A DNA stretch of 40,844 nucleotides from a virus (Duplodnaviria; Heunggongvirae; Uroviricota; Caudoviricetes), in the IMG/VR virus record IMGVR_UViG_3300025916_000008, positions 1-40,844 of that record. The stretch is one strand, 5' to 3'. A program made the position numbers and the translations under genes. Below, one piece after another: positions 1 to 39,959 of the stretch (positions within the stretch are counted from its first letter, which is position 1; each line of letters begins with the position of its first letter). The notes under the pieces are model-generated. The model was not told the DNA's origin and did no database searches. It worked only from the letters and a program-made list of their open reading frames with translations.

Positions 1-233
1 GAACGAGTCGGTGAGGAGACCGGGAGCGGGCTCGCCGGGGCAGCGCCTACCGTGACCTCGGCGGTGCCGGTGGCGGTGCTCCCGTCGCCGTTGGTGACCA
101 CGGCGGTGATCGTGAGGGTGGTGCCGGGGTTGGCCGGGTCCGTGTACTCCACGGTGACGGTGATGGGGTCGCCGGAGTTGTAGGCGGCCTTGTCGGTGGT
201 GACGACGGGAGCCGTCGGCGTCGGGGTGGTCAA
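1..233 (-). CDS. Partial (runs off left edge) Thr/Val-rich Ig-like putative virion protein
   Basis: Not in ORF track. TTG start at 233 behind a GGAGGAGG RBS and a CCCCGGAAG motif; reads MTTPTPTAPVVTTDKAAYNSGDPITVTVEYTDPANPGTTLTITAVVTNGDG..., a beta-sandwich-like pattern. Confidence 0.6.
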   Translation of the reverse strand, partial: MTTPTPTAPVVTTDKAAYNSGDPITVTVEYTDPANPGTTLTITAVVTNGDGSTATGTAEVTVGAAPASPLPVSSPTR

Positions 234-291
234 GGAGTCCTCCTCCAGAAGGGAACGCGGTGTTCTTACCTTCCGGGGGGCGGACCGGGGC

Positions 292-636
292 TCAGGACCT
301 GGCGGACCTGACGACCCCGAGGCCCGCCAGGATGTCGAACTCTTCCCGGATTCTGTCCGGGACCGCCGCCCCGTCCCGCACCTCGTAGCCGCGCGAGGCG
401 GCCCACTGGCGCAGCTCGGGGGGCTCCGCGCCCCTGCTCCGCTTCTTCTGCCCGGGGACCTTCCTCTTCCTGCTGGCCGCCTCGGTGTAGGGGGCGAGCG
501 CCTCGCGCATCTCCCCTGCCTGCTCGGCGCTGAGGTCGATCTCGTAGTCCGTGCCGTCCAGCCCGAAGCGGACGGTCACGTCTGCCTGGGTGCCGTCCAG
601 GTCGCTGATCAGATCAACCTGCTCTCTCTGTGCCAT
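292..636 (-). CDS. lsr2: Lsr2-family nucleoid-associated protein (AT-hook RGR motif absent)
   Basis: DLDGTQADVTVRFGLDGTDYEIDLS and LRQWAASRGYEV match the Lsr2 N- and C-terminal domains; ATG 636 with GAGGAGG RBS. Confidence 0.9.
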   Translation of the reverse strand: MAQREQVDLISDLDGTQADVTVRFGLDGTDYEIDLSAEQAGEMREALAPYTEAASRKRKVPGQKKRSRGAEPPELRQWAASRGYEVRDGAAVPDRIREEFDILAGLGVVRSARS

Positions 637-707
637 CGGCCCTCCTCGCGCGCATGTCACTCAAGGAGGGATTTTACACTGATACAGCTTTCCTTGACAG
701 GAGAGGA

Positions 708-1244
708 TTAATTCGTCGCGGTGGTCGCGCTGAACTGGTTGGAGTTCAAGGGCAGGTAGTGGGTGTAGGCGAACGTGATGCCCTTGGTGACGGCCAGCGC
801 CCCGACCGTCACCGTCTCGCCGTCGTTGATATCGACAACCGTGACATTCTGGTAGACCTTGCCGCGCCAGGCGCTCGGGTTCGCCTCGGTGCCCGGCGGC
901 TTGATGATCATCGAGGCCGTCACGTAGTTCGGGTTGGCCGCCAGCGCCTTGAAGATGTCGACCATGTTCCAGGTGCCGGCCAGGCCCGCGAGCTGCCACC
1001 ACACCGGCTGGCTCCACAGCTCCCGGATGGTGATCATCACCGTCCCGCCGGAGATCACGCGCGAGGTTGCGATCTCAACCGGGTGCTCCGCGCCGATCGG
1101 CTGAATGAACTGGTAGGGCTGCCCCACGTCGGAGAACGCCCGCTGGCCCGAGTCCTCCCACCCCTCGCAGTAGGCGATCGGCTGGGAGTTGTAGGACAGG
1201 ACCGTGTAGCCGGAGCCTACGACTCTGGCCTGGGTCGTTGCCAT
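708..1244 (-). CDS. Putative tail tube protein
   Basis: 178 aa, beta-rich, immediately downstream of the sheath gene, as in myovirus sheath-tube order. Confidence 0.7.
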   Translation of the reverse strand: MATTQARVVGSGYTVLSYNSQPIAYCEGWEDSGQRAFSDVGQPYQFIQPIGAEHPVEIATSRVISGGTVMITIRELWSQPVWWQLAGLAGTWNMVDIFKALAANPNYVTASMIIKPPGTEANPSAWRGKVYQNVTVVDINDGETVTVGALAVTKGITFAYTHYLPLNSNQFSATTATN

Positions 1245-4430: not shown

Positions 4431-4535
4431 GCCCCGGCGCTTACAGGCACGGTGCTCCCTCGCTTACAGCGGGCCAGGGGGCTGACGGCTGGGCGGCTCC
4501 CCCGCTTACGGCGGTACCGCTCCCCCGCTTACAGG
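4431..4535. repeat. Four phased direct repeats GCTCCCYCGCTTACRG
   Basis: CGCTTAC cores at 4438, 4461, 4503, 4526 in an intergenic gap. Confidence 0.8.
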
Positions 4536-4575
4536 CCGCAGGAAGGTATCACGTACCACGTATGCCGCTCACCTG

Positions 4576-5277
4576 CTAGAACCGGGAGCGCCAGCTCCGG
4601 TCGGCCGCGTAGATCCGCTGCGGCTGGAGGCCGCCCTGCTCGGCGGCCAGCGACAGCGCGTGGTTGAGGAACTTGCGCGGGGCGAGCCCCGGGTGACGCC
4701 AGCGGACGCCGATGTTGCCCCGGGCTATCTGGCCGGCCACCCGGCCCGGCGTGGTGAACGGGGTGCTGGCCTCCCGGCGGGCAATGCGGCCGGGCGCTCC
4801 AGGGTAGGAGGCGGGGACCGTCCGCTCCTCGACGGTGCCGCCCGCCGTCTTCTTGCGCGTCGTCTTCGTCGCGCCGGGCATGGCGGCCCTGCGGAAGATC
4901 AGCACCTGGACCTTGCCGGAGAGCGTCTGCCTGGTCTGCGCGTGCGGGTTCTTCTCCCGCTCGGTGCCCGTGGGGTCGTCAACCCACATCGGGATCGTCT
5001 TGCCCGCCAGGCTGAACATGGTGAACGGCTGGATGCCCTGCTCCTGGAACCACACGTAGGAGTCCTGCCAGCCGACGCCGAAGAACCCGGTGCCGTACAA
5101 GGGGAAGAGCCGGCTGGCGGCGGCACCTGACAGCTTCGGCATCACCCGGCGGGCCTCCCGGACGGCCGCGTTGGCGAGGCTCCGGGCGCGTGGCCCGGAC
5201 AGGCCGTCCACCCGCATGATCAGCCGGTCCGGGTGCGCGGAGATGATCATCTCCTGGGTCTCGGTCAGCGCCACCAT
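4576..5277 (-). CDS. Putative virion morphogenesis (neck/head-tail) protein
   Basis: 233 aa basic ORF in the structural arm; TAGCAT -10 7 nt before ATG 5277; function inferred from position only. Confidence 0.5.
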   Translation of the reverse strand: MVALTETQEMIISAHPDRLIMRVDGLSGPRARSLANAAVREARRVMPKLSGAAASRLFPLYGTGFFGVGWQDSYVWFQEQGIQPFTMFSLAGKTIPMWVDDPTGTEREKNPHAQTRQTLSGKVQVLIFRRAAMPGATKTTRKKTAGGTVEERTVPASYPGAPGRIARREASTPFTTPGRVAGQIARGNIGVRWRHPGLAPRKFLNHALSLAAEQGGLQPQRIYAADRSWRSRF

Positions 5278-6495: not shown

Positions 6496-6568
6496 AGGGG
6501 TGTAGCTCAACTGGAAGAGCAGCGGTCTCCAAAGCCGCGTGTTGGGGGTTCGAGTCCCTCCGTCCCTG
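6496..6568 (+). tRNA. tRNA-Trp(CCA)
   Basis: Cloverleaf; loop CT-CCA-AA; T-loop TTCGAGT. Confidence 0.95.
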
Positions 6569-6637
6569 CTGGACCGCAAGGTCCTACAGCCACCGGCCGA
6601 CGGGCGAGAGCCCCGAGGGCGGCAACCGGCTCGCATA

Positions 6638-6654
6638 TTGAGAACTCAACAGCG
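6638..6654 (+). promoter_or_regulatory. rrn-type boxA-like antitermination element
   Basis: TTGAGAACTCAACAGCG resembles the actinobacterial rRNA-leader boxA region (..TTTGAGAACTCAA(T/C)AG..). Confidence 0.6.
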
Positions 6655-6659
6655 GAACA

Positions 6660-6940
6660 CGTAACGCGGCGGGGTGCCAACCCGCCGCAGGTTTCGGCGT
6701 GCTGAAAGACAATGCAGCTACTCCTGGGGAGCAGCGGCCGTTAAAGGCCGGGGGCGCTCGCGCTCCTGTACCAGGCAGCACGCCAGCAAGACTCCCTCTC
6801 CCTGGTGCTCACGCCCAGCGGCCGGCCTGTTCACACCGGGCCGGCCCGAGCGGCATACCCACTTAGGTGCACGGAGGCGAGCCCGCCCTGGGCACCCGGC
6901 TGCGCTAGTCGCTACCCGGTGAATGCTAGGGCGGGCTCCG
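6660..6940 (+). ncRNA. Candidate structured ncRNA
   Basis: Stems 6666-6673/6681-6688, 6696-6704/6776-6784 (closing a multibranch loop), 6879-6889/6928-6938. Confidence 0.5.
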
Positions 6941-6942
6941 AT

Positions 6943-7015
6943 GGGGCCTTGGCGCAGCAGGTAGCGCGCTTGCATGGCATGCAAGAGGCCGGGGGTTCGA
7001 TTCCCCCAGGCTCCA
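6943..7015 (+). tRNA. tRNA-Ala(GGC)
   Basis: Cloverleaf; CTTGC-ATGGCAT-GCAAG arm; G3.U70. Confidence 0.95.
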
Positions 7016-7100
7016 CGAGGGTGAAGATGCGGGGTTCGAGTCCCCGCCCCGATGGATGATAAGCCGGGCGGTAGCTCAACAGCGCAGAGCATCACTCATC
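7016..7100 (+). ncRNA. Permuted tRNA-core RNA (YrlA/Y-RNA-like), imperfect acceptor stem
   Basis: Order GGTGA - AGATG - T arm - acceptor hairpin - TA-GCTC D arm - A - TCACT. Confidence 0.5.
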
Positions 7101-7270
7101 AGACGGCCCTGTCGCGGCATGCCGCGCGTGTGGCCAGAAGGCGAGACGGCAAGTCTGCTGCCATGTGTAGGGGGCCGTGACGGGCACCCCAGCGGCGGTT
7201 ATACCGAAGGCCGGGCGTCTCCGGCGGCAAAGCAGCAGGTTCAGCGGGAATTCTCCGTCGTCCCGCCCAT

Positions 7271-7343
7271 GGGGATGTAGCTCAGCAGGTAGAGCACCCG
7301 GCCCGCAACCGGGTTGTCAGGGGTTCGATTCCCCTCTTCTCCA
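7271..7343 (+). tRNA. tRNA-Ala(CGC), C33
   Basis: Cloverleaf; loop CC-CGC-AA; G3.U70. Confidence 0.9.
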
Positions 7344-7344
7344 C

Positions 7345-7462
7345 GTGGCGATCCGAGGCACGGCATCCGATGCCATCCCTGATCAGGATGGCTGGACACG
7401 GTAACCGGCTTGAATGCCTGGCGCGAATCCAAGCGCCCAGGCCGGGGTAACTCGCCACTCCA
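7345..7462 (+). ncRNA. tRNA-like RNA with 7-bp acceptor stem and encoded CCA
   Basis: GTGGCGA/TCGCCAC + T + CCA; internal hairpin with CT-GAT-CA loop; no canonical T arm. Confidence 0.45.
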
Positions 7463-7541
7463 CGTCGAAGGAGGACGCATGGTTCTGCGCCATCTCACAT
7501 CCAGTTCTTAGGGACTCGGATGTGAGAGGGGGTGACACCCC

Positions 7542-7691
7542 GTGGCTGGCAAGCAGCACAAGCACAAGAACCGCAAGCACGGGCGCAACCGCGCCAAGTG
7601 CGCGCGGTACGCGGCCGAGCACCGCCGGACGAAGAACAACCCGGCGCGTACCAGGCGCAATCCTGAAAGGACGCCGCATGGACGGCGCTAA
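7542..7691 (+). CDS. 49-aa very basic peptide
   Basis: GTG 7542 after GGGGGTGA RBS; MAGKQHKHKNRKHGRNRAKCARYAAEHRRTKNNPARTRRNPERTPHGRR; below ORF-track cutoff. Confidence 0.6.
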   Translation: MAGKQHKHKNRKHGRNRAKCARYAAEHRRTKNNPARTRRNPERTPHGRR

Positions 7692-7736
7692 CGAAGTACC
7701 AGGAGCGGCCCCGGCCACGCGCCGGGGCTGTTCGAG

Positions 7737-7810
7737 CGGGATGTAGCGTAACGGCAGCGCGCCTGCTTTGGGAGCAGGCAGCCGAGGTTCGACTCCTCGC
7801 CTCCCGACCA
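7737..7810 (+). tRNA. tRNA-Pro(TGG)
   Basis: Cloverleaf; TT-TGG-GA; encoded CCA. Confidence 0.95.
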
Positions 7811-8078
7811 GCCGCCTGGGGCCTGCGCAGCCCCCGAAGCCCCCCGCGCAGGGGAGATTAGTCCTGGTCGTAACCCGGCCGGGTTGGCGGCGCGAACCCT
7901 CTGAGAACCCGGGCAGAGACCAAAAAAGCCGGGCGCAGTCCATAGCACGGGGAGGCGAAGCCGACCGGCAGTACCGTGCAGGTGCCCAGGAAGTGATCGC
8001 GACGCTAGGGCCTGGCACCGAAGGACCTCAACGGAAGTGCGGCGGAAGCAAGAGCCACGCCCTGCCAGAGGTCCGCCT

Positions 8079-8150
8079 CGGGATATGGCGCATCGGTAGC
8101 GCACCCGGCTGGGGGCCGGGGGGCGGCAGGTTCGATTCCTGCTATCCCGA
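8079..8150 (+). tRNA. tRNA-Pro(GGG)
   Basis: Cloverleaf; CT-GGG-GG. Confidence 0.9.
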
Positions 8151-8368
8151 CGTTTGGCAGTGCCGAGGGCAGAGCCGCCTTTAAGCGGTAGTCACCCGAA
8201 GCGGTGACGACCGTCCCGGCGGGGCACCCGGTCCGGACCGGGCGTCATATGCCCGGTGCACTGCCGGCTAGATCCGGAGAGGCGACGGTGAGAAGCCGTC
8301 CCGGGGTGTCTCACGCTCGCGCGAGCGGTGTAGGCCGGTGGTGTAGGTAACAGCATTCTCTGGTTAAT

Positions 8369-8397
8369 CGGAGTGTGGCGCAGCTTGGCTAGCGCGC
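8369..8397 (+). pseudogene. 5' half (acceptor strand + D arm) of a tRNA-Pro, truncated by the endonuclease insertion
   Basis: CGGAGTG-TG-GCGC-AGCTTGGCTA-GCGC-G followed directly by TACAGT -10 and the endonuclease start. Confidence 0.75.
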
Positions 8398-8409
8398 TAC
8401 AGTAGGTCC

Positions 8410-8814
8410 GTGGAGCTTTCAACCGCCCAGAAGGGCGAGCTAGCCATGCTGAAAGTCATGACGCGGGCCGTCGAGCTGGGCTGGATCGCCAGTCGGCCAA
8501 CGCGCGACTGCCGATACGACTTGATCCTCGACGAAGGCTCCAAGCTGTACCGGGCGCAGGTCAAGTTTTGTGCTCGGAAGTCCTCCCACTCCACCGGGGT
8601 GGCACATCTCGATCTCACCAAGGGCGGCGCGCGGAACCGCGCCTACCTGGAGGACGAGATAGATGCCGTGGTGGTCTACGTGGCGGCTATCGACCTGATC
8701 GTCTGGCTCGGCCGGGATATCTTCCATGGCCGGAAGCAATTGCACATCAGGTATAAGCCGACCAGGAGCGGCCAGGTGCAGGGGACGCTGATGGCGTCCG
8801 AGTTCGCCTGGTGA
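8410..8814 (+). CDS. PD-(D/E)XK homing endonuclease, I-Ssp6803I-like
   Basis: KGELA..V...A...GW.ASRP..DCRYDLILD......RAQVK pattern; tRNA context; leaderless (TACAGT 6 nt before GTG). Confidence 0.8.
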   Translation: MELSTAQKGELAMLKVMTRAVELGWIASRPTRDCRYDLILDEGSKLYRAQVKFCARKSSHSTGVAHLDLTKGGARNRAYLEDEIDAVVVYVAAIDLIVWLGRDIFHGRKQLHIRYKPTRSGQVQGTLMASEFAW

Positions 8815-8817
8815 TAT

Positions 8818-8892
8818 CGGGTTATAGCGCAGCTTGGTGAGCGCGCCTGCTTCGGGAGCAGGAGGTCCCCAGTTCAAATCTGGGTAACCCGA
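8818..8892 (+). tRNA. tRNA-Pro(CGG)
   Basis: Cloverleaf; TT-CGG-GA. Confidence 0.95.
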
Positions 8893-8943
8893 CGGGGCCT
8901 GATGATCACAGGCCTGCTGGGACGCGGCGTCGAGAACCGCGTT

Positions 8944-9056
8944 AGATGCCGGTGCTGGCTGCACGGGTGAACGGCTGCGCAGGGAAATCCTCCCGGTGAG
9001 GGAGGCCGGTACCTGCGCGATGGAATCCAGGCCAGGTTCGATCCCTGGGGCATTGC
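8944..9056 (+). ncRNA. tRNA-shaped RNA with extended anticodon-arm-like hairpin and no anticodon loop
   Basis: Acceptor ATGCC/GGCAT, D arm GCTG/CGGC, stem GCGCAGG/CCTGCGC, T arm CCAGG-TTCGATC-CCTGG. Confidence 0.55.
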
Positions 9057-9057
9057 T

Positions 9058-9205
9058 GACCTGGAAGGTGGGCTTAGAGGCAGCCATCCTTCAAAGAGCG
9101 GGGTCATGCCGCCTCCTGTCCGAGGGCAGCTCGCGGTGACAGCGAGCCCGCTGGCGGGCGGGCGGGCAAACGGAGCACCCCCTTGGCGTAAAAGCACACC
9201 AGGTC
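9058..9205 (+). ncRNA. 23S rRNA GTPase-associated-centre (H43-H44, uL11-binding) mimic with 87-nt insertion
   Basis: GACCTGGAAGGTGGGCTTAGAGGCAGCCATCCTTCAAAGAG...GCGTAAAAGCACACCAGGTC aligns to E. coli 23S ~1050-1109 with compensatory changes. Confidence 0.85.
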
Positions 9206-9210
9206 TTCAC

Positions 9211-9284
9211 GGTCGTGTAGCTCAGTCGGAACGAGCGGTCGCCTGAAAAGCGACAGGTCCCCTGTTCGATCCAGGGCATGACCA
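9211..9284 (+). tRNA. tRNA-Phe(GAA)
   Basis: Cloverleaf; CT-GAA-AA. Confidence 0.95.
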
Positions 9285-9401
9285 CGGTGACGGAGTACTA
9301 CGTCACTTGGCTCCCGTGGTAAGCGCACTACGGGAAAATCGGTTGGCCTGGTGGCCGCCCTGGTGAAGAGCCGGGCCTGGGTTCGATCCCCGGGATCGTG
9401 C

Positions 9402-9472
9402 GCGGATGTAGCTCAACGGCAGAGCCCCTGCCTTCCAAGCAGGCCACGCGGGTTCGATTCCCGTCTTCCGCT
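9402..9472 (+). tRNA. tRNA-Gly(TCC)
   Basis: Cloverleaf; CT-TCC-AA. Confidence 0.95.
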
Positions 9473-9662
9473 CTGCGGCGTGACGCGGCCAGGTCCCTCG
9501 GATCGTCGCGGCCAGGCGAGTAGCGCTCCTCCTGGTAAACAGGACCTTCGCGAGGGTCCTGCCTCACGTCCCCCGGGGCACCTCACAACGTCGCCGGCAC
9601 CCTGGCCTCCCCGCCGCAAGCCCGGAGTGCCAGGCCCTGGACCGGCGGGGCCTCGGGACCAC

Positions 9663-9735
9663 GCGCCGCTAACTCAATTGGCAGAGTGCCTGACTCTTAA
9701 TCAGAACGTTGGGGGTTCAAGTCCCTCGCGGCGCA
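9663..9735 (+). tRNA. tRNA-Lys(CTT)
   Basis: Cloverleaf; CT-CTT-AA. Confidence 0.95.
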
Positions 9736-9813
9736 CTGGAGGAATACTGAAGGCCGAACCCGGGGCTGGTGCCGACGAAGAGGCCTCCTGCCACCAGCAG
9801 TATTCCTCCTCAC

Positions 9814-9887
9814 GGGCGAGTAGCAGAACGGCATATGCCGGGGCCTCAAAAACCTTGTGAATGCGGGTTCGAATCCCGCCTTGCCCA
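9814..9887 (+). tRNA. tRNA-Leu(CAA), weak anticodon stem, short variable arm
   Basis: CT-CAA-AA; stem GGGGC/ACCTT has two G.U pairs and one mismatch. Confidence 0.75.
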
Positions 9888-10053
9888 CAGGCGCTGACGG
9901 CGATGTCCGCTGCGGCCGGGAGGTACCCAGTCCTCCGACGCGGCGCACAGGAGCGCGGTATCAAGTACCAGACCGTCCGCCCGGGTAGCGCCCGGGGGAG
10001 ACTGAGGACTGATAAAACCCGGCCGAGCCTGAGTGGCCTGGGCTGATTGCCAA

Positions 10054-10127
10054 TGGGGTATAGCTCAACTCGGCAGAGCGCCGGCGTCTGGTGCCGGAGG
10101 TTCCAGGTTCGAATCCTTGTATCCCAG
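10054..10127 (+). tRNA. tRNA-Gln(CTG)
   Basis: Cloverleaf; loop GT-CTG-GT; U1-A72. Confidence 0.9.
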
Positions 10128-10191
10128 CGCCGTCGACCTCGGTGAGGCTAGCCGGGGGAGGCCGTCCTGAGCATGACGCTAAAAGGCATCT

Positions 10192-10264
10192 GCCCTTGTA
10201 GCTCAGTTGGTAGAGCAGCGCTCTCGTAAAGCGCAGGCCAGCGGTTCGAAGCCGCTCGGGGGCT
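10192..10264 (+). tRNA. tRNA-Thr(CGT)
   Basis: Cloverleaf; CT-CGT-AA. Confidence 0.95.
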
Positions 10265-10344
10265 CCCGGTCAGTGGGACGAACCAAGGTGCAGCGGCTAG
10301 CCGCCAAGGTACCGGCCGGAATCCGGTTTCCACTGACTGGCCTT

Positions 10345-10429
10345 GTCCTTGTGGCGAAATGGCAGACGCGCCAGCTTGAGGTGCTGGTACCCCGTAAGGG
10401 GCGTGAGGGTTCGAGTCCCTCCTCGGACA
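10345..10429 (+). tRNA. tRNA-Leu(GAG)
   Basis: Type II cloverleaf; TT-GAG-GT; two acceptor mismatches. Confidence 0.9.
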
Positions 10430-10546
10430 CGGGCAGGATAGACCCGGGGATGCCGCGCGGTCCCCGGCGGAGCGGGGAACGGCAGCGCCGAGCGCTCGGG
10501 GCTGCGGCACCTGGTTGTCCTGGACCGGGAGGGTACCCCGGGCTAT

Positions 10547-10619
10547 GCCGCCTTAGCTCAGCAGGCAGAGCGATCCCCCTGTAAGGGAAGGCGCGGCGGT
10601 TCGATTCCGTCAGGCGGCT
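10547..10619 (+). tRNA. tRNA-Thr(TGT), C33
   Basis: Cloverleaf; CC-TGT-AA. Confidence 0.85.
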
Positions 10620-10620
10620 C

Positions 10621-10694
10621 TGGGCGTTAGCTCAACATGGCAGAGCGCACGGCTTTGGTCCGTGAGGTTCGGGGTTCGATCCCCTGCCGCCCAG
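10621..10694 (+). tRNA. tRNA-Gln(TTG)
   Basis: Cloverleaf; CT-TTG-GT. Confidence 0.9.
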
Positions 10695-10699
10695 CGTGG

Positions 10700-10766
10700 G
10701 CCGCCGGATGGCACGAGGGAGGGTGCCTACAGTTGCAACTACCCGTTCGAATCGGGAACGGCGGCT
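10700..10766 (+). pseudogene. Degenerate tRNA-like element (Cys GCA-like loop)
   Basis: GCCGCCG/CGGCGGC stem, GGCAC/GTGCC arm, CCCG-TTCGAAT-CGGG arm; collapsed anticodon and variable region. Confidence 0.35.
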
Positions 10767-10793
10767 CTCCAGCTCCCCCGGTAACCTGGCCTC

Positions 10794-10994
10794 ATGAGCG
10801 TGAAGCACGTGCAGGCGCAGCTCCGGTCGGGCACCACGGTGCGGACGTGCTGGCTCCCCCAGGGGATCAAGCCGGGTGACCGGGTGACCCTGAAGAACTC
10901 CGAGGACCCGGCCCGCTGGTGGGACGTGACGGAGGTCGGCAGCGAGGCCCGCGAGCTGTCGGAGATCAATCGCGGGTGGAACAACAACATCTAG
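10794..10994 (+). CDS. Small hypothetical protein (leaderless)
   Basis: 66 aa; TAACCT 6 nt before ATG; stop overlaps first base of tRNA-Thr(GGT). Confidence 0.7.
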   Translation: MSVKHVQAQLRSGTTVRTCWLPQGIKPGDRVTLKNSEDPARWWDVTEVGSEARELSEINRGWNNNI

Positions 10995-11066
10995 CCTGGA
11001 TAGCTCCAGCGGCAGAGCGGCTCCATGGTAAGGAGCAGGTCGCCGGTTCGAATCCGGCTCCAGGCT
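10994..11066 (+). tRNA. tRNA-Thr(GGT)
   Basis: Cloverleaf; AT-GGT-AA. Confidence 0.95.
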
Positions 11067-11138
11067 CGGGGACTTCTTGATCACGGTGATCGTGTCCGTG
11101 GCGCACCAAGCCCCGCCCGGTGGGAATCCGGGCACCAC

Positions 11139-11211
11139 GCGGTTGTGGCGCAGCAGGCAGCGCGGCACCTTGCCAAGGTGCAGGTCGCCGGTTCGATCCC
11201 GGTCAGCCGCT
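11139..11211 (+). tRNA. tRNA-Gly(GCC)
   Basis: Cloverleaf; TT-GCC-AA. Confidence 0.95.
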
Positions 11212-11479
11212 CTCGGGGTACCGAGCCTCCGATGGCCCAAAGCCTGAGTCGCGACACGGAGAGCCCTCCGACGGCCGAGTTAGCCTGAAGGGGACCCTGA
11301 CCAACTGGCACGGCACGGTGCCTGACCGGATGTCCCAGCCGACCTACCCCGGCTGCGTGACGCCGGCGCAAACCCGACCGGGGTAGCGGCCGGGAACGTG
11401 TCTCCGGGGTGCTCGCTGCCGTCGCCCCGGGCGTCCAGTAGGGCGCTGATCCCGTCCCGGCGGGTGAACGGTAGCTTAC

Positions 11480-11555
11480 GCGGTTGTAGCTCAGCAGGCA
11501 GAGCACGTGCTTCCCAGGCATGATGTCGCGGGTTCAATTCCCGCCAGCCGCTCCA
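11480..11555 (+). tRNA. tRNA-Gly(CCC)
   Basis: Cloverleaf; TT-CCC-AG; encoded CCA. Confidence 0.95.
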
Positions 11556-11623
11556 CGCCGCGCCCGGCGGCGTCACTCTCCCCGCGAGGGGAGACAAGGG
11601 TTCCTCGGGGCTCCCGGGCACAT

Positions 11624-11708
11624 GGGCTTGTGGCGGAATGGCAGACGCGCCAGTTTCAGGAACTGGTGTCCCGCAAGGGACGTGAGGGTTCGAGTCCCTC
11701 GGGGCTCA
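11624..11708 (+). tRNA. tRNA-Leu(CAG)
   Basis: Type II cloverleaf; TT-CAG-GA. Confidence 0.9.
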
Positions 11709-11758
11709 CGGGGATGCGCAGGTGGCCCGGCTTGCAAGAGCCCGGCGGTCCCTAACCT

Positions 11759-11845
11759 GGAGAGCGAACCGGACAGGCGCGCCGGGCTTCGCCGCTAACG
11801 AATGCGCGGGGGTGACCCCGTGGGTTTCGAGTACTCCGCTCTCCG
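11759..11845 (+). tRNA. tRNA-Ser(GCT), C33
   Basis: Type II; CC-GCT-AA; G73; irregular T stem. Confidence 0.8.
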
Positions 11846-11850
11846 CACCT

Positions 11851-11908
11851 GGGCCGCAGCACTGGAGTGCAGCCGGATGGACGGGTTCGATTTCCCGTGC
11901 GGTCCACC
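11851..11908 (+). ncRNA. Anticodon-less mini-tRNA with Ala identity (G3.U70, A73)
   Basis: GGGCCGC/GCGGTCC-A-CC, GCAC-TGGA-GTGC arm, ACGGG-TTCGATTT-CCCGT arm; only 10 nt between D and T arms. Confidence 0.65.
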
Positions 11909-11964
11909 GGGTCCCGGCAGGCCATGCCGGATTTTCCGGACACACCGGAAGCCGGGACCGGCAT

Positions 11965-12047
11965 GGAGAGGTCGCCTAGCGGTCTATGGCGCTTGCCCGG
12001 AAAGCAAGTTGGGGTAACCCTCGCGAGTTCGAATCTCGCTCTCTCCG
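11965..12047 (+). tRNA. tRNA-Ser(GGA), C33
   Basis: Type II; CC-GGA-AA; G73. Confidence 0.9.
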
Positions 12048-12069
12048 CGCGGATGGTAGATTAGCTGTT

Positions 12070-12543
12070 ATGCCATCCGAAATATCCTGCGCCTGGGCAG
12101 CCGGGATTCTCGACGCCGACGGATGCGTAACCATGAGACCGCCATCGGGCGGTCGGTTCCGGTCCCCCTACCTTGTAGTCGACTCCACCGACAGGGAGAT
12201 CCTGGAAGAGTTGGTTGCCAGCTTCGGCGGTCGCATCCACGAGAAGAGCGTCCGGCATGAGCACTGGCGTCGCCAGTGGTCCTGGCGGATGTACGGGACC
12301 GTTGGCATCCTTGAGTTCCTGCGGCTGGTCATCCCGTACATGCGATGCCCCGCCAAGGTAGCTCGGGCGAGGATGCTAATCGACGAGTACCCGGCGCTGA
12401 CTCAGCGAAACGGCTGGTACACCCCAGAACAGCGGGCAGCAAAGCTCGACATGGAGGAGCGGTTCATGGCTATCGGTTACGGCCGAGGAGCCAGCCTGCG
12501 AGCCCTCCCAAGACCCGGAAGCGTAAGCCGAGCTTCGGCCTAA
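12070..12543 (+). CDS. Single-motif LAGLIDADG homing endonuclease
   Basis: WAAGILDADGCV motif plus LVVDSTDREILEEL..FGG.I; extended -10 TGG-TAGATT 7 nt before ATG 12070; stop codon inside the next tRNA's D loop. Confidence 0.85.
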   Translation: MPSEISCAWAAGILDADGCVTMRPPSGGRFRSPYLVVDSTDREILEELVASFGGRIHEKSVRHEHWRRQWSWRMYGTVGILEFLRLVIPYMRCPAKVARARMLIDEYPALTQRNGWYTPEQRAAKLDMEERFMAIGYGRGASLRALPRPGSVSRASA

Positions 12544-12606
12544 CGGCGGCTGTCTCGAAAACAGCTAGGGGTAACTCCCGTGTGGGTTCGAGACCCACCG
12601 CTTCCT
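12517..12606 (+). tRNA. tRNA-Ser(CGA)
   Basis: GGAAGCG/CGCTTCC acceptor; CT-CGA-AA; long variable arm; overlaps the LAGLIDADG 3' end. Confidence 0.85.
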
Positions 12607-12610
12607 CTGC

Positions 12611-12802
12611 TTACGGCACGCGCCGCCTGGCGTTCCAGTTTCCGGCTCCCCAGCCGGAGCCGAACCCCGCCTCGGCGAGGGCCAGGAAAGTCAGCCCGAT
12701 GGCGATGATCCCGATGATGACGGTCAGGGAGATGCCGTGGACGCCGAGGATCGCGATGATCGCGGCGATGAGGAAAGCGAGGACCGCAAGTCCGTAAGTC
12801 AT
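12611..12802 (-). CDS. Small two-TM membrane protein
   Basis: 63 aa hydrophobic; AGAAGGAG RBS; CCCCGGAAG motif upstream. Confidence 0.75.
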   Translation of the reverse strand: MTYGLAVLAFLIAAIIAILGVHGISLTVIIGIIAIGLTFLALAEAGFGSGWGAGNWNARRRVP

Positions 12803-12858
12803 GACAGGGCTCCTTCTGAGGAGCTACCTGCCCCTCAGTTCTTCCGGGGGGCGGTCGA

Positions 12859-12932
12859 GGGCGTGTAGCTCAGTCGGTTAGAGCACTTCCCTGATAAGGA
12901 AGGGGTCAGAGGTTCAATTCCTCTTTCGCCCA
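12859..12932 (+). tRNA. tRNA-Ile(GAT)
   Basis: Cloverleaf; CT-GAT-AA. Confidence 0.95.
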
Positions 12933-12936
12933 CCTC

Positions 12937-13008
12937 GGCGGTGTAGCTCAGTGGCAGAGCACCCGGCTCATAACCGGGAGGCCGGCGGGTCGTTCCCGCC
13001 CTCCGCTA
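12937..13008 (+). tRNA. tRNA-Met/Ile2(CAT), atypical T loop
   Basis: CT-CAT-AA; T loop GTCGTTC; Met vs lysidine-Ile identity not resolved. Confidence 0.8.
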
Positions 13009-13165
13009 CCTGGACCTGCGGGCAGGTTCCGGGCTCGTGCGCCAGCAGCAGCGCGGTGCCGGCCCAGAGATGGAATGCTGACTCTCCCGGCAGCACCGGG
13101 CGAGGGCACAGGAGGCACCGCCAGGGAAACGGCCCCCGGTAGGTGAAGACCTGCCCGATACGCAC
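12968..13165 (-). CDS. Small Cys/His hypothetical protein antisense to tRNA array
   Basis: TAGTAT 6 nt before GTG 13165; CLLC and H..C motifs. Confidence 0.5.
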   Translation of the reverse strand: MRIGQVFTYRGPFPWRCLLCPRPVLPGESAFHLWAGTALLLAHEPGTCPQVQVAEGGNDPPASRL

Positions 13166-13177
13166 GACCAGATACTA

Positions 13178-13253
13178 GGGCCGTTAACTCAGTGGTAAGA
13201 GTGTCACCCTTATAAGGTGAGAGTCGTGCGTTCAATCCGTACACGGCCCACCA
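13178..13253 (+). tRNA. tRNA-Ile(TAT)
   Basis: Cloverleaf; CT-TAT-AA; A73; encoded CCA. Confidence 0.9.
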
Positions 13254-13301
13254 GGACGGAGAGCACGTGAACGTCAAACAGGCCCGGCGAATACCTTTCG
13301 C

Positions 13302-13373
13302 GGGCTGGTAGCTCAACGGCAGAGCAGCGGTCTTTTAAACCGTGGGTTTAGGGTTCGAATCCCTGGCAGCCCA
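13302..13373 (+). tRNA. tRNA-Lys(TTT)
   Basis: Cloverleaf; CT-TTT-AA. Confidence 0.95.
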
Positions 13374-13377
13374 CCCT

Positions 13378-13450
13378 GCGCCATTAGCTCAGAGGAAAGA
13401 GCGGCCGGCCTCTACCCGGCTCGCCGGGGGTTCGAGTCCTCCATGGCGCA
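13378..13450 (+). tRNA. tRNA-Arg(TCT), C33
   Basis: Cloverleaf; CC-TCT-AC. Confidence 0.8.
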
Positions 13451-13538
13451 CGAGACTGGCCCACTTAAGACGGGCTCCGTGGACGCGGGTGCTAGCCCCT
13501 CGTCCTCCCCCGGCGGTCGGTCAAGCCGCGCGGAACAC

Positions 13539-13612
13539 GGTCCGTTGGAGGAATCGGCGAACTCACCTGGCCCTCAACCAGGAGATTGCGGGTTCAAGCC
13601 CCGCACGGATCA
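13539..13612 (+). tRNA. tRNA-Glu(CTC), C33
   Basis: Cloverleaf; CC-CTC-AA. Confidence 0.9.
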
Positions 13613-13799
13613 CGCAAGCCGGGTACCCAGCCAGCGGGTGACAAGCCCGGCGTGCAAGGACGCTGGCCTCTGCGAGCGGGAGCGCATGCCTCCCGCGCTT
13701 ACTCGGGGACCCGTTACGCGGGAGGACGGCCATCCAATACGGCGTCCCCGTAATACGATCCGGACCGCAGGTGGCTGAAATCCGCTGGACCGGACATCT

Positions 13800-13872
13800 G
13801 CCCCCATCGGCCAATGGCTAGGCCGTCTGCCTTTCAAGCAGGAGAAGACGGGTCGGAACCGTCTGGGGGAGC
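13800..13872 (+). tRNA. tRNA-Glu(TTC), atypical T loop
   Basis: CT-TTC-AA; T loop GTCGGAA; G1.A72 mismatch. Confidence 0.75.
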
Positions 13873-13902
13873 GAGGCCGGGACATGTATCCTGGCCACAC
13901 GA

Positions 13903-13977
13903 CGCGGAGTGGGGGAGTTCGGTGTCCCCGCTGGGCTCATAACCCTGAGATCGCGGGTTCAAATCCCGCCTCCGCAA
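13903..13977 (+). tRNA. Initiator tRNA-fMet(CAT)
   Basis: C1.A72 mismatch; GGG/CCC anticodon stem; CT-CAT-AA. Confidence 0.95.
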
Positions 13978-14123
13978 CGAGGAAGTGCTGGGCTGGTACT
14001 TGGCAACGTGTAGCGCCGCAGGGTCCGCCCTGCGGTGCTGTGACCGTAAGTCCCTTAAACCTCCCCCCTAGTCACGTCTGGAGCGCCGGCCAGCGCCAGT
14101 AAACGGGAAGAGCACTGAATCAT

Positions 14124-14197
14124 TCCGGTGTAGCTCAATTCGGCAGAGCAGGCGGCCGTTAACCGCAAGGTTCCAGGTTCGATTCCTGGTACCGGAG
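14124..14197 (+). tRNA. tRNA-Asn(GTT), C33
   Basis: Cloverleaf; CC-GTT-AA; G73. Confidence 0.9.
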
Positions 14198-14247
14198 CAT
14201 CACGGTTGGCGCGGCGGGTAAAATCCCAGCCTTAACCGCGCCGTCAT

Positions 14248-14322
14248 GGTCTTGCAGGGCAGCCAGGAGTGCCCACCTCCCTGTCAAGGAGGAGATCGCC
14301 GGTTCGAATCCGGTCAGGACCG
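14248..14322 (+). tRNA. tRNA-Asp(GTC)
   Basis: Cloverleaf; CT-GTC-AA; G73. Confidence 0.9.
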
Positions 14323-14381
14323 CCGGGAAGGTCATCGGCAGAAGTGAAAGAGCGCGCCTTGTCGAGGGCGGCTCGCCTTCC

Positions 14382-14522
14382 CTACAGCCCGGTTATCCGC
14401 CGCCGGTTGTGCAGCTCGGCCTCGCCGAGCCGCTCCAGCCCGTGCACCGCGCCGCTGCGCCGGCCGCAGGCGAAGCCGACGATGAAGGCGACGACGATGA
14501 TCACGGCAAGTGCAAGTCCCAT
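14382..14522 (-). CDS. 46-aa single-TM protein antisense to tRNA array
   Basis: MGLALAVIIVVAFIVGFACGRRSG...; TATCGT 7 nt before ATG; below ORF-track cutoff. Confidence 0.65.
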   Translation of the reverse strand: MGLALAVIIVVAFIVGFACGRRSGAVHGLERLGEAELHNRRRITGL

Positions 14523-14571
14523 GTAACAAACGATACGTTTCCCTGGCTTACCTGGCCACCGGGGACGAAAC

Positions 14572-14643
14572 GGGCGCTTAGCTCAGCGGAAGAGCGCTTC
14601 TCTGACACAGAAGAGGCCGGAGGGTCAGCACCTCCAGTGCCCA
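14572..14643 (+). tRNA. tRNA-Val(GAC), atypical T loop
   Basis: CT-GAC-AC; T loop GTCAGCA. Confidence 0.85.
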
Positions 14644-14650
14644 CGGTAAG

Positions 14651-14728
14651 AGGACAGTGGTGAAATCGGTAGACATTGGCGAGGAAGGGTGCCACCCCCT
14701 CATGCAGGTTCGAGTCCTGCCTGTCCTC
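14651..14728 (+). ncRNA. tRNA-Leu-like RNA with remodelled anticodon arm
   Basis: AGGACAG/CTGTCCT acceptor, Leu-type D region GGTGAAATCGGTAGAC, perfect T arm; no 7-nt anticodon loop. Confidence 0.55.
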
Positions 14729-14771
14729 TCGCTAAAGGCGGCCCTGGTTGCAACCGGGGCCGCCTCAACTC

Positions 14772-14844
14772 GCGGACGTAGCTCAACGGATAGAGCGTCA
14801 GCCTACGGAGCTGAGCGTTGGGGGTTCGAGTCCCTCCGCCCGCA
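14772..14844 (+). tRNA. tRNA-Arg(ACG)
   Basis: Cloverleaf; CT-ACG-GA. Confidence 0.95.
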
Positions 14845-14989
14845 CGGTCCCCAGGGACTGGTCCATGGCTCCCCTGCACGGCTCCTCATGTGGGAGACAT
14901 GCCGTGCGCCGCCGCACTTGCCCCACCCTGGGAGCGGCGGAGTTCCTGGGCGACTGCTCAATGAGTGGTTGAAGCAGTCATCACATCAC

Positions 14990-15061
14990 GGGCGACTAGC
15001 TCAAAGGAAGAGCGCTGGTCTCACACACCAGGGGTTGAAGGTTCGAGCCCTTCGCCGCCCA
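14990..15061 (+). tRNA. tRNA-Val(CAC)
   Basis: Cloverleaf; CT-CAC-AC. Confidence 0.95.
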
Positions 15062-15063
15062 CC

Positions 15064-15136
15064 GGGTCGTAACCCAAACGGTTGCGGGGCCTGCCTGTGG
15101 AGCAGGTATTAGCGGGTTCGACCCCCGCACGACCCT
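15064..15136 (+). tRNA. tRNA-His(GTG), irregular 5' region
   Basis: CCTGC-CTGTGGA-GCAGG arm, T arm; position-8 register and discriminator atypical. Confidence 0.7.
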
Positions 15137-15140
15137 CCGT

Positions 15141-15236
15141 GGTGAACATGGTGCAACGGAAGCACGCCGGCCTAGCTGGATTTACTGCTCTCGTGGAGCC
15201 GGAGACCGCCGGGGTTCGACTCCTGGCGTGTTCATC
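15141..15236 (+). tRNA. tRNA-His-like gene with 19-nt insertion in anticodon loop
   Basis: G-1:C73, GTGAACA/TGTTCAT acceptor; loop CT+[15174-15192]+GTGGA; T stem extended. Confidence 0.7.
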
Positions 15237-15242
15237 ACCCCT

Positions 15243-15323
15243 GGCGGAGTGACCCGAGATGGCATGGGGGCGGTCTGTAAAACCGCTGCTTCGGCACGGC
15301 TGGTTCGAGCCCAGCGTCCGTCA
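15243..15323 (+). tRNA. tRNA-Tyr(GTA)
   Basis: Type II; CT-GTA-AA. Confidence 0.9.
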
Positions 15324-15334
15324 CGTAGTTCTTT

Positions 15335-15407
15335 GCGCCCGTAGCTCAGCGGATAGAGCACCGCCCTCCGGAGGCGGGGGCCGGGGGTTCGAGTCCCTCC
15401 GAGCGCA
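15335..15407 (+). tRNA. tRNA-Arg(CCG)
   Basis: Cloverleaf; CT-CCG-GA. Confidence 0.95.
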
Positions 15408-15577
15408 CTGGGAAGTGGTGTAAGAGGGCGATCCGGCCAAGCTCGTGGCCACGGGCGAAGGCAGGGGAAGCCCCTCGACAGCGCTGCCCGCCGAGACCAT
15501 GGCAGCCGGCGGGCGGACAGCATCCCCGGGTTCCACCCCGGGGCGGTCCTGGCGAGAACCCAGGCTTCCCAGCCAAC

Positions 15578-15648
15578 CGCAGGGTGTCCGAGAGGCGAGG
15601 TCCTGGTCTGCAAAACCAGGTACGCGGGTTCGAATCCCGTCTCTGCGT
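15578..15648 (+). tRNA. tRNA-Cys(GCA)
   Basis: CT-GCA-AA; U73. Confidence 0.9.
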
Positions 15649-15683
15649 CGGGAACCGGGTGCGGTGCATCCATTCCGGTTCTA

Positions 15684-15756
15684 AGCCCGGTAGCTCAGGG
15701 GATAGAGCTATCGCCTCCTAAGCGAGTGGTCGGGGGTTCGAGTCCCTCCCGGGCTG
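15684..15756 (+). tRNA. tRNA-Arg(CCT)
   Basis: Cloverleaf; CT-CCT-AA. Confidence 0.9.
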
Positions 15757-15813
15757 CCCCGCGTGTTCCGCTGCTGAGTCCCTCCGCCCTGGAAGCAGGG
15801 AGGAGGCCAACAC

Positions 15814-39271: not shown

Positions 39272-39398
39272 AGGGTCCTCCCGGTCTGCTCTCCTCTTCC
39301 GGGGCAGCCCGGGAACCCGTTGCTCAATACAGCTTTTCTTGATATTCTCGTGCCAGCGAACGCAGAGCAGGGACGAAGCAGGGACACTGGAGGAGAAG

Positions 39399-39959
39399 AT
39401 GACCGAGATGACACTGGCCCAGCAGGTCGCCCAGGAGGCAGCCGGACGGGTCCACAAGCTCGCCCCCTACCTGACCGACGGCCGGCACCCGCTCACCCCC
39501 GGGCAGGCCGAGGGGATCATGCGGCACCTGGGCACGTGCCCGGTACGGCCAGCTCCGGAGGAGAACGTGGCGCGTCACGACGCTCACAGGGCGGAAACGG
39601 ATCACGAGCGTCACGCGGCAGGCCCCGTCATCGCCGACATCACGGCCGGGTTCTACGCCACGCCGAGCAGGACCGGCACCAACGACCTGGACTTCTGGAA
39701 GGTCACCGAGGGCCGCAGGCCCGGCATCCGGTTCGTCAAGCGGGTGGTCGGCGGCGGCGACGACAAGTACCCCAGGCTGATCGAGATCTCCAACCAGGAG
39801 CAGCTCCAGGCGCTGCGGGCTATCCTGCGGGCAGGGATATCAGAGGCTGCCGACGTCTACGCCGTCAACCAGGAGCGCTGCAAGAAGTGCGGCAGCCAGC
39901 TTACTGACGAGGCGTCGCGGGCGGCCAGGATGGGGCCTGTATGCCGAGGAGAACGGTGA
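39399..39959 (+). CDS. DUF6011-like Zn-finger protein
   Basis: C-terminal RCKKCGSQLTDEASRAARMGPVC; GGAGGAG RBS; ATACAG-N10-TATTCT promoter. Confidence 0.75.
   Translation: MTEMTLAQQVAQEAAGRVHKLAPYLTDGRHPLTPGQAEGIMRHLGTCPVRPAPEENVARHDAHRAETDHERHAAGPVIADITAGFYATPSRTGTNDLDFWKVTEGRRPGIRFVKRVVGGGDDKYPRLIEISNQEQLQALRAILRAGISEAADVYAVNQERCKKCGSQLTDEASRAARMGPVCRGER

Follow-up and report, generated by a model that had tools for sequence, protein, structure and literature searches.

A candidate non-coding RNA in a phage tRNA array carries a split copy of helices 43 and 44 of 23S rRNA

The locus and its resemblance to the GTPase-associated centre

The DNA analysed here (the window, 40,844 nucleotides (nt)) is the first 40.8 kb of the IMG/VR virus record IMGVR_UViG_3300025916_000008, the genome of an uncultured Caudoviricetes phage with 162,409 bp that is rated complete by CheckV. 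The window contains 39 tRNA genes, all on the plus strand and spanning 6496-15758. Inside this array, at 9058-9205, lies an element in which a first-pass annotation had recognized a phage RNA that copies the GTPase-associated centre (GAC) of 23S rRNA. The bacterial GAC is the uL11/thiostrepton domain of about 58 nt (E. coli 1051-1108) and consists of helices 43 and 44 (H43, H44) and the end of helix 42 (H42). It is a small autonomous domain, its tertiary fold is needed for L11 binding (PMC6239185), and it is the RNA that is contacted by translational GTPases and RelA (PMC6239185, PMC8661411). The features of the element are listed below; numbers between 1051 and 1108 refer to 23S rRNA, and the family mentioned is the set of related RNAs described in the next section.

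9058-9205 (+): GAC-mimic RNA gene, 148 nt, non-coding, inside the tRNA array
9058-9064 (+): 5' strand of the closing helix P1, GACCUGG, pairs with 9199-9205; replaces the H42 end, 1051-1055
9066-9090 (+): copy of H43 (1067 hairpin); lower stem 9066-9068/9088-9090, U1060 at 9069
9071-9073/9083-9085 (+): upper stem of H43; loop 9074-9082 with A1067 at 9076, and a G that replaces A1070 at 9079
9091-9099 (+): junction UCAAAGAGC; 1082-1086 pair (9091-9095), G1087 at 9096 (pairs with C9197), A1088 at 9097, then G and C at 1089-1090
9100-9181 (+): insert, 82 nt, one long irregular hairpin
9182-9184 (+): linker CUU; UUU in about 90% or more of the family, CCU in the relatives L100 and L357
9185-9198 (+): copy of H44 (1095 hairpin); G9185, stem G9186-C9195 and C9187-G9194, loop GUAAAA at 9188-9193; A1095 at 9190, A9196 where rRNA has U1101, C9197 for C1102, A9198 for A1103
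9199-9205 (+): 3' strand of P1, CCAGGUC, pairs with 9058-9064

The 23S sequence of Salmonella LT2 was used as reference, with offsets of 8009 for the 5' half and 8095 for the 3' half. As had been stated in the first-pass annotation, both halves could be aligned to H43-H44 without gaps. The 5' part was identical to 1051-1090 at 29 of 40 positions, and at 27 of 35 without the replaced closing helix (1056-1090). The 3' part was identical to 1091-1108 at 13 of 18 positions, and at 11 of 13 without the closing helix (1091-1103). As a background value, the best other 35-mer on both strands of the window reached 19/35. In addition, the archaeal large-subunit (LSU) rRNA model of Rfam matched 9061-9118 at its positions 1179-1234, i.e., at H43/H44 (19 bits, E 0.0016, 521 nt searched, permissive settings). 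The reverse comparison gave the same picture, because a covariance model that was built from the phage RNAs alone (R1) scored the authentic Salmonella H43-H44 with 53.9 bits and an E-value of 4e-12. The same model scored 9058-9205 with 95.9 bits (E 2e-22, model positions 1-167), the element being one of its 53 training rows; the E-values of this quickly calibrated model are rough. It found a single copy of the element in the 162-kb genome.

The secondary structure of the GAC is present, with the H43 and H44 hairpins on a three-way junction and with conserved loops, and the 5' strand of H44 is interrupted by the insert. Every base equivalent that had been named could be confirmed from the sequence, i.e., A1067 (9076) and A1095 (9190), U1060/A1088 (9069/9097), U1082/A1086 (9091/9095), and both base triples, in which G1071 (9080) meets the G-C pair 9186-9195 and C1072 (9081) meets the C-G pair 9187-9194. 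Judged by sequence, the nucleotides of the GAC tertiary fold are thus all present, namely U1060/A1088, the 1082-1086 pair, and G1071 and C1072 with their H44 partners. The compensatory replacement of the closing helix was likewise found at 9058-9064/9199-9205. Additional roles of individual rRNA nucleotides are known from crystal structures of L11-RNA complexes.

The element also differs from the ribosomal domain. It stands alone between tRNA genes, without the rest of 23S rRNA: no other LSU rRNA sequence was detected anywhere in the 162-kb genome, in line with the earlier remark that no rRNA adjoins the element, and neither the window nor the genome had an LSU match at gathering score. The closing helix is unrelated in sequence and covaries within the family, and there is neither H42 nor a Kt-42 flank. 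The copy in the window has an 82-nt insert after 1090, an A for U at 1101, and a G for A1070, which is invariant in rRNA and makes no tertiary contact (PMC6239185). Elsewhere the two RNAs are nearly the same in sequence, namely in H43, in the 1082-1086 turn, and in the hairpin of H44. Taken together, the identification of 9058-9205 as a split copy of H43/H44 was confirmed at the level of sequence.

The insert had been described as an 87-nt domain (9099-9185) at 1089/1090. An insert does exist, but its size is 82 nt, counted from G9100 to C9181 and followed by the 3-nt linker. Its position is after 1090, in the unpaired bulge 1088-1090 of the bacterial LSU consensus (GAguGCGUAAuAGCUCAC), since the 5' half of the phage RNAs has GAGU as its last bases. 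Its helices are the base 9100-9104/9177-9181, then 9109-9111/9171-9173, 9112-9122/9155-9165 and 9125-9127/9150-9152, and a terminal stem 9129-9134/9142-9147 with the loop GGUGACA (9135-9141). This structure is based on three sequences, the copy in the window, L100 (on a 158-kb IMG/VR contig), and L357 (on a soil metagenome contig), which are the only two close relatives with this insert type that were found. Two pattern scans of IMG/VR for the insert type returned only L100 together with chance matches in coding DNA, and a pattern scan of metagenomes gave 120 mostly fortuitous matches with one further true relative, L357. RNAalifold on these three sequences yielded 10 pairs with compensatory changes, seven of them in the insert (four in the terminal stem) and three in P1. 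Of the hairpins proposed earlier, GCUCGC/GCGAGC (9129-9134/9142-9147) and the base GGGGU/ACCCC are backed by the relatives, whereas CUGUC-CGAG-GGCAG and CCCGC/GCGGG are replaced in the consensus fold by one long arm, in which CCUCCUGUCCG pairs with CGGGCGG... 

The RNA family, its covariation and its conservation

Relatives were retrieved from IMG/VR with two pattern scans. The first one used the exact pattern of the H43 loop and stem and led to at least 117 contigs, almost all of which run into variable sequence and not into 23S rRNA. The second one used the 3' block alone and added members whose H43 differs from the first pattern. Among the matches listed, 111 of 119 occurrences had a GGCGUAAUAGCAC-like block downstream, and after it a stretch complementary to the 7 nt directly upstream of H43. 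Membership was defined by our own patterns and filters, including the complementarity of the closing helix. After removal of duplicates, at least 133 distinct RNAs with lengths of 107-431 nt were obtained; the per-member counts below refer to these 133 among the matches listed, or to stated subsets, and the family is larger than this number.

The common plan, from 5' to 3', comprises the closing helix, the H43 copy, UAAAGAGU, an insert with a paired base, a UUU linker plus G, the GCGUAAUAGC hairpin, A-C-A, and the other strand of the closing helix. The inserts, as counted, are 42-366 nt long, with a median of 132. The copy in the window has this full architecture and deviates only by the C for U at 1090 and the CUU linker, and both positions deviate also in L100 and L357. 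An insert-less form of 64 nt was found in L014 (3711-3774 (+), 35.6 bits), in which 1090 is C and 1101 is G, so that the two could pair. Six members have a second insertion site within H43, directly after A1077 (L123 at 816-977 (-), L143, L155, L178, L179, and L203; 51-77 bits with the family model); in L123 it holds a GGGAGG...CCUCCC hairpin. The 174-kb viral contig L058 carries two GAC mimics in tandem, of about 237 and 264 nt, with H43 motifs at 5138 and 5456 (+).

Cultured phages are among the carriers. Unannotated elements were found in Pseudomonas phage pf16, between tRNA-Asn and tRNA-Pro (102.8 bits), and in Serratia phage BF (86.5 bits), and BLAST pointed to further carriers, i.e., Aeromonas phage 4_4572, Erwinia and Xanthomonas jumbo phages, and a Paenibacillus phage. 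The family model had no match in T4, T5, KVP40, Mycobacterium phage LinStu and Rhodococcus phage E3, the last two of which are weak protein-level relatives of the phage studied here. With the 3'-block pattern, 3 of 120 matches in species-representative bacterial genomes were true elements, compared to about 75 of 120 in viral contigs. At least one of the three bacterial cases sits in a phage-like tRNA array: in L298, a contig of a "bacterial" genome, the element lies at 205-452 (-), and the surrounding 8 kb contain 14 tRNAs, including one of amber-suppressor type (cta). L298 is probably phage DNA that was binned into a genome.

A covariation analysis with a custom covariance model had been proposed as a check, and it revealed strong covariation together with highly variable inserts. 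The alignment (A1) contained 53 shorter members including the copy in the window, and 21 pairs were counted, i.e., the rRNA-derived structure and the helix at the base of the insert. Standard pairs made up 93.1% of the cells, versus 66.7% (standard deviation 1.0) after shuffling, and the covariation score was 0.651 versus 0.153; none of 500 shuffles was as high in either case. When the 3' partners were slid by 1-3 columns, pairing fell to 31-54%. The pair 1058-1080, which is G-C in the window (9067-9089) and had been noted as covarying, was UA in 22, GC in 18, AU in 9, and CG in 2 members. The pair 1057-1081 was AU in 36 and CG in 11, and 1082-1086 was CG in 20, UA in 19, and AU in 3. In the helix at the base of the insert, all four pairs change on both sides across the family, and all seven pairs of P1 covary, but the latter result is partly circular, as complementarity of P1 was a membership criterion; the other helices were not used for the selection of members. 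The pair G1087-C1102 and the stem pairs of H44 were present in 53/53.

To read conservation independently of retrieval, each half was scored only in members that had been retrieved via the other half. In the 35 members retrieved via the 3' block, U1060, G1063, C1072, and C1075 were invariant (35/35), and G1071, A1073, and A1077 were found in 34/35. Lower values were obtained for U1065 (29/35), A1067 (25/35, G in 8), and G1068 (22/35). In the 97 members retrieved via the 5' pattern, G1093, U1094, and A1098 were invariant (97/97), and G1091, C1092, G1099, and C1100 were found in 96/97. A1095 was present in 88/97 and A1096 in 74/97, position 1097 was U in 47, C in 36, and A in 13, and A1070 was G in 18/97, as in the window. 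The linker had U at its three positions in 92, 95, and 89 of the 97 members, and 1101, which is U in rRNA, was A in 95/97.

These results bear on the possibility that the element is a non-functional remnant, i.e., a fragment of host 23S rRNA that was captured with tRNA genes, or an assembly chimera, and that decays neutrally. The high identity to rRNA and the richness of the region in mobile endonuclease genes (such as the PD-(D/E)XK open reading frame (ORF) at 8410-8814) would fit a remnant, but it is contradicted by compensatory changes and invariant fold nucleotides across at least 133 copies, by derived characters throughout the family that rRNA lacks (the post-1090 insert, the UUU linker, and A1101 in 95/97), by the lack of any other rRNA in the genome, and by the copies of pf16 and BF, in which variable positions do not match the gammaproteobacterial sequence of the respective host. 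A chimera is also contradicted by L100 and L357, independent assemblies that share the insert type with compensated stems. A remnant is therefore extremely improbable. Neutral decay would have removed the triple and loop nucleotides from the homologues, yet the triple nucleotides were kept, with G1071 in 34/35, C1072 in 35/35, and their H44 partners in 96/97 each; in the loops, A1067 (25/35) and A1095 (88/97) are more relaxed. The fold was thus shown to be under purifying selection, and the proposal of a selected rRNA mimic held, as compensatory changes were observed across at least 133 distinct members and the tertiary-fold nucleotides hardly vary.

Because the insertion site, the U-rich linker, and A1101 are common to the family and absent from rRNA, the sequences argue for one origin with subsequent spread rather than repeated capture from hosts. 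The deviation of the pf16 and BF copies from host sequence at variable positions agrees with one origin.

The conservation pattern also bears on the nature of the ligand. The nucleotides that build the fold are kept, and some nucleotides that rRNA conserves for contact with factors or drugs are relaxed, a pattern that fits selection for the fold and for uL11 binding better than selection for factor contact. A role as sponge for thiopeptides of the thiostrepton class, which would protect translation in infected cells, had been among the earlier suggestions. In the copy of the window, both bases lining the drug cleft (A1067 and A1095) are preserved, and the weak relatives of the phage infect actinobacteria, the home of thiopeptide producers. 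However, the hosts of carrier phages include Pseudomonas, Serratia, Erwinia, Aeromonas, and Xanthomonas, which are hardly accessible to thiopeptides, and A1067 is G in 8/35 members that were retrieved independently of the 5' half. A thiopeptide decoy is thus very unlikely, at least as the general role of the family, as carriers include phages of Gram-negative hosts.

Alternatively, the RNA could imitate the docking site of translation factors and trap or misdirect EF-G, IF2, RF3, or RelA, alone or as an RNA-uL11 particle, and thereby re-tune host translation or alarmone signalling. These factors contact exactly the domain of which the phage RNA is a copy (PMC6239185, PMC8661411). In addition, hairpins similar to the sarcin-ricin loop, which supplies the second RNA half of the factor site, were found in two relatives with long inserts, namely L091 (347-nt insert; CUAGUACGAAAGGAGCG) and L044 (310-nt insert; AUAGUACGGGAGGAAAU). 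These were the only convincing cases among the 133 members, with four weak-or-better matches versus 0.8 expected, and a copy of the sarcin-ricin loop was rejected as the general content of the inserts. A fuzzy search found no such motif in the insert of the window, which also showed no similarity to other regions of 23S rRNA, and a BLAST comparison of all family inserts with Salmonella 23S rRNA gave 105 short matches versus 93 for shuffled inserts, i.e., nothing beyond chance. Furthermore, conservation is relaxed precisely at the bases of factor contact (A1067, A1070, and A1095), and isolated GAC RNA binds factors only weakly. A factor trap is therefore regarded as quite improbable. Because the inserts vary greatly across the family, the conserved part is the GAC copy, which is presumably also the active part.

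The tRNA array as genomic context

Two features directly flank the RNA:

8970-9056 (+): tRNA-like element, 87 nt, with a long extra arm, low-scoring, found by ARAGORN at relaxed threshold only; ends 1 nt before the RNA
9211-9285 (+): tRNA-Phe(GAA); begins 5 nt past the 3' end of the RNA

A tight association with tRNAs was observed throughout the family. Within 2 kb of the members, 492 tRNAs were on the same strand and none on the opposite strand. A tRNA lies within 20 nt of 55/133 members and within 1 kb of 86/133, and in all of the latter (86/86) the nearest tRNA is on the same strand. The gaps are bimodal: 33 members start 0-10 nt past the 3' end of a tRNA, and 33 end 0-20 nt before the 5' end of a tRNA. 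The relative L100 has a normal tRNA that ends 6 nt upstream of the element. A scan of the array for promoters and terminators gave nothing above shuffled sequences, and neither a promoter nor a terminator consensus flanks the element.

Because the element abuts same-strand tRNAs, with no consensus for a flanking promoter or terminator, a processing from the array transcript is a well-motivated proposal, and the earlier proposal of a release by tRNA-array processing fits the context (gaps of 1 nt and 5 nt, 492/492 tRNAs on the same strand). The RNA would be transcribed with the tRNA array and excised by tRNA-processing enzymes. The 5' cut might be made by RNase Z or E at the upstream tRNA-like element, which is likely to be the 5' processing signal, and the 3' end would be set by the RNase P site of tRNA-Phe. 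The RNA would then accumulate like a tRNA.

The location also invites the explanation that the RNA lures an enzyme or toxin directed against the GAC, either as a decoy substrate or by binding it; the attacker might be, e.g., an abortive-infection effector of the host or the toxin of a competitor. Its role would be akin to that of the phage tRNAs next to it, which presumably counter defences that target tRNAs. The genes for the RNA are embedded in tRNA arrays, in every case with the orientation of the tRNAs, and the literature regards such arrays as anti-defence loci. The loop and stem of H44 are highly conserved, with G1093, U1094, and A1098 invariant, and the bacterial toxin Tre23 ADP-ribosylates H44 at 1095-1098 (PMC8661411). 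On the other hand, A1095 and A1096 vary somewhat, and a decoy works poorly against a catalytic toxin unless it is bound much more tightly than ribosomes. An anti-phage defence directed at the GAC was not found in the literature searched, and we know of no such system. A decoy of this kind is thus unlikely, but it is the most serious competitor among the alternatives considered so far.

Several other features of the window were observed. The tRNA-like element at 8970-9056 was not called by standard ARAGORN and Rfam, and the same was true for 9338-9401, a T-arm-like segment with a weak mascRNA-type match. One of the two pieces may be an unusual type II tRNA, because no tRNA-Tyr was called among the 39 tRNAs of the window. 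Two further ARAGORN tRNAs have odd anticodon loops: the one at 10547-10620 has a 2-nt "anticodon", yet it is a good Rfam tRNA (53.6 bits), and the one at 14650-14730 has 81 nt and a 4-nt anticodon (gaag) and is absent from the Rfam matches. The ORF at 8410-8814 (+), within the array, encodes 134 amino acids and is a PD-(D/E)XK endonuclease (PF11645, E 9e-19), probably a mobile or homing nuclease of the kind that is common in phage tRNA clusters. The ORF at 35087-39457 (-) encodes 1456 amino acids with a prohead-protease-like segment; among cultured phages, it has relatives only in cluster C mycobacteriophages (45% identity, residues 86-279) and in Rhodococcus phage E3. As a clue to the host, only weak protein links to actinobacteriophages were obtained, with 45% identity over 13% of one ORF, and most other large ORFs of the window had no Pfam, PHROG, or cultured-phage match.

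Possible ligands and biological meaning

A search among the genes of the phage for uL11, bL12, an EF-type GTPase, or a RelA/SpoT domain found none of them, and therefore any such ligand of the mimic would be that of the host. The explanation that we tentatively prefer on the basis of sequence comparison is a stable non-coding RNA, a free-standing GAC mimic that is processed like a tRNA and acts in trans, with host uL11 as the most likely ligand. The two ends of the RNA fold into a copy of the GAC (H43, H44, and the junction), closed by the family-specific helix and with a lineage-specific hairpin inserted in the bulge 1088-1090, and the RNA would act as a free imitation of the ribosomal site. 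Host uL11 is ranked as the most likely ligand because conservation favours the nucleotides of the fold over those that contact factors or drugs, and because the phage brings no partner protein. Captured uL11 could lead to a lower uL11 occupancy on ribosomes; alternatively, the RNA might hold a uL11-RNA particle that competes for whatever docks at the site. Relief from the uL11-dependent activation of RelA may be one plausible pay-off.

Several points weigh against the preferred explanation. The insert sits in H44, and some members have a second insertion site after A1077, which bears on the docking of uL11. A sponge must be abundant relative to ribosomes. The sarcin-ricin-like hairpins of L044 and L091 hint at a ligand that sees both halves of the factor site and not uL11 alone. 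Lastly, thermodynamic folding of the RNA is unremarkable on its own (z = -1.75).

Several known systems resemble the RNA in part. The leaders of ribosomal protein operons, such as the L10 leader (L10_leader, RF00557) and the L1 site on the L11-operon mRNA, are likewise extra-ribosomal RNAs that imitate the rRNA site of a ribosomal protein, and like them the phage RNA would capture free protein. In contrast, they are cis-acting 5' untranslated regions of the protein's own cellular operon and loose imitations, whereas the phage RNA is near-exact, has no ribosomal protein gene nearby, and presumably acts in trans. The RNA does not belong to this class: it is flanked by tRNAs, the genome contains no gene for uL11 or bL12, and no Rfam leader family matched in the window. 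The setting and the presumed biogenesis are the same as for the small stable RNAs T4 rnaC/rnaD and T5 RNAI/RNAIII and for the large RNAs GOLLD and ROOL, which also lie in tRNA arrays, on the same strand and abutting tRNAs. However, there is no homology to the T4 and T5 RNAs, which were rejected as members of the family because the family model found nothing in T4 or T5 and was silent also in KVP40. The Rfam models of GOLLD and ROOL had no match in the window. GOLLD was found only as a separate gene in L028, where a GOLLD RNA (685-1176 (-), 164.8 bits) and a 109-nt GAC mimic (4488-4596 (-)) lie in the same tRNA array, about 3.3 kb apart. Pseudo-ToxI of phage phiTE (PMC3475682) is also encoded by a phage and binds a host protein through its likeness to a host RNA; unlike the RNA described here, which copies a universally conserved ribosomal domain, it copies the repeat of an antitoxin RNA and neutralizes one toxin.

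The statement that no phage RNA of this type has been described held for Rfam 15 and for the literature searched. Rfam 15 has no family for the RNA, with no gathering-level match in the window or in 20 family loci, and no description of the family was found in that literature. A published catalogue comprises 10,006 candidate structured RNAs from IMG/VR, of which, according to the paper, none overlapped with rRNA predictions, and a motif of this kind is not described there (PMC10690425); the family could be among its unnamed entries.

A broader version of the proposal is possible, but doubtful. In that case many phage lineages would produce a portable copy of the factor-docking RNA at tRNA-like levels, which would form a small particle with host uL11, in some relatives together with a sarcin-ricin-like hairpin. 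It would shield ribosomes from effectors that attack the site, or divert RelA or translational GTPases, and would thus be an RNA-based counter-measure that is directed at the ribosome itself and located, together with phage tRNAs, in anti-defence islands.

The natural variation of the family maps the changes that the GAC fold tolerates, i.e., insertions after 1077 and 1090, G at 1067 and 1070, and the insert-less 64-nt form. The proposals are directly testable, as the RNA is carried by cultured phages with tractable hosts, i.e., Pseudomonas putida phage pf16, Serratia phage BF, and Aeromonas, Erwinia, and Paenibacillus phages. Should the RNA prove to bind uL11 or a different GAC ligand, a virus would for the first time be known to employ a free-standing imitation of a ribosomal functional centre. 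With at least 133 distinct members, the RNA would then represent a new class of non-coding RNAs in phages, and unannotated gaps in their tRNA arrays would acquire a function. Furthermore, infection would be connected with processes that depend on uL11, e.g., the activation of RelA, factor turnover, and termination, or a hitherto unknown attack of the host on this site would come to light.

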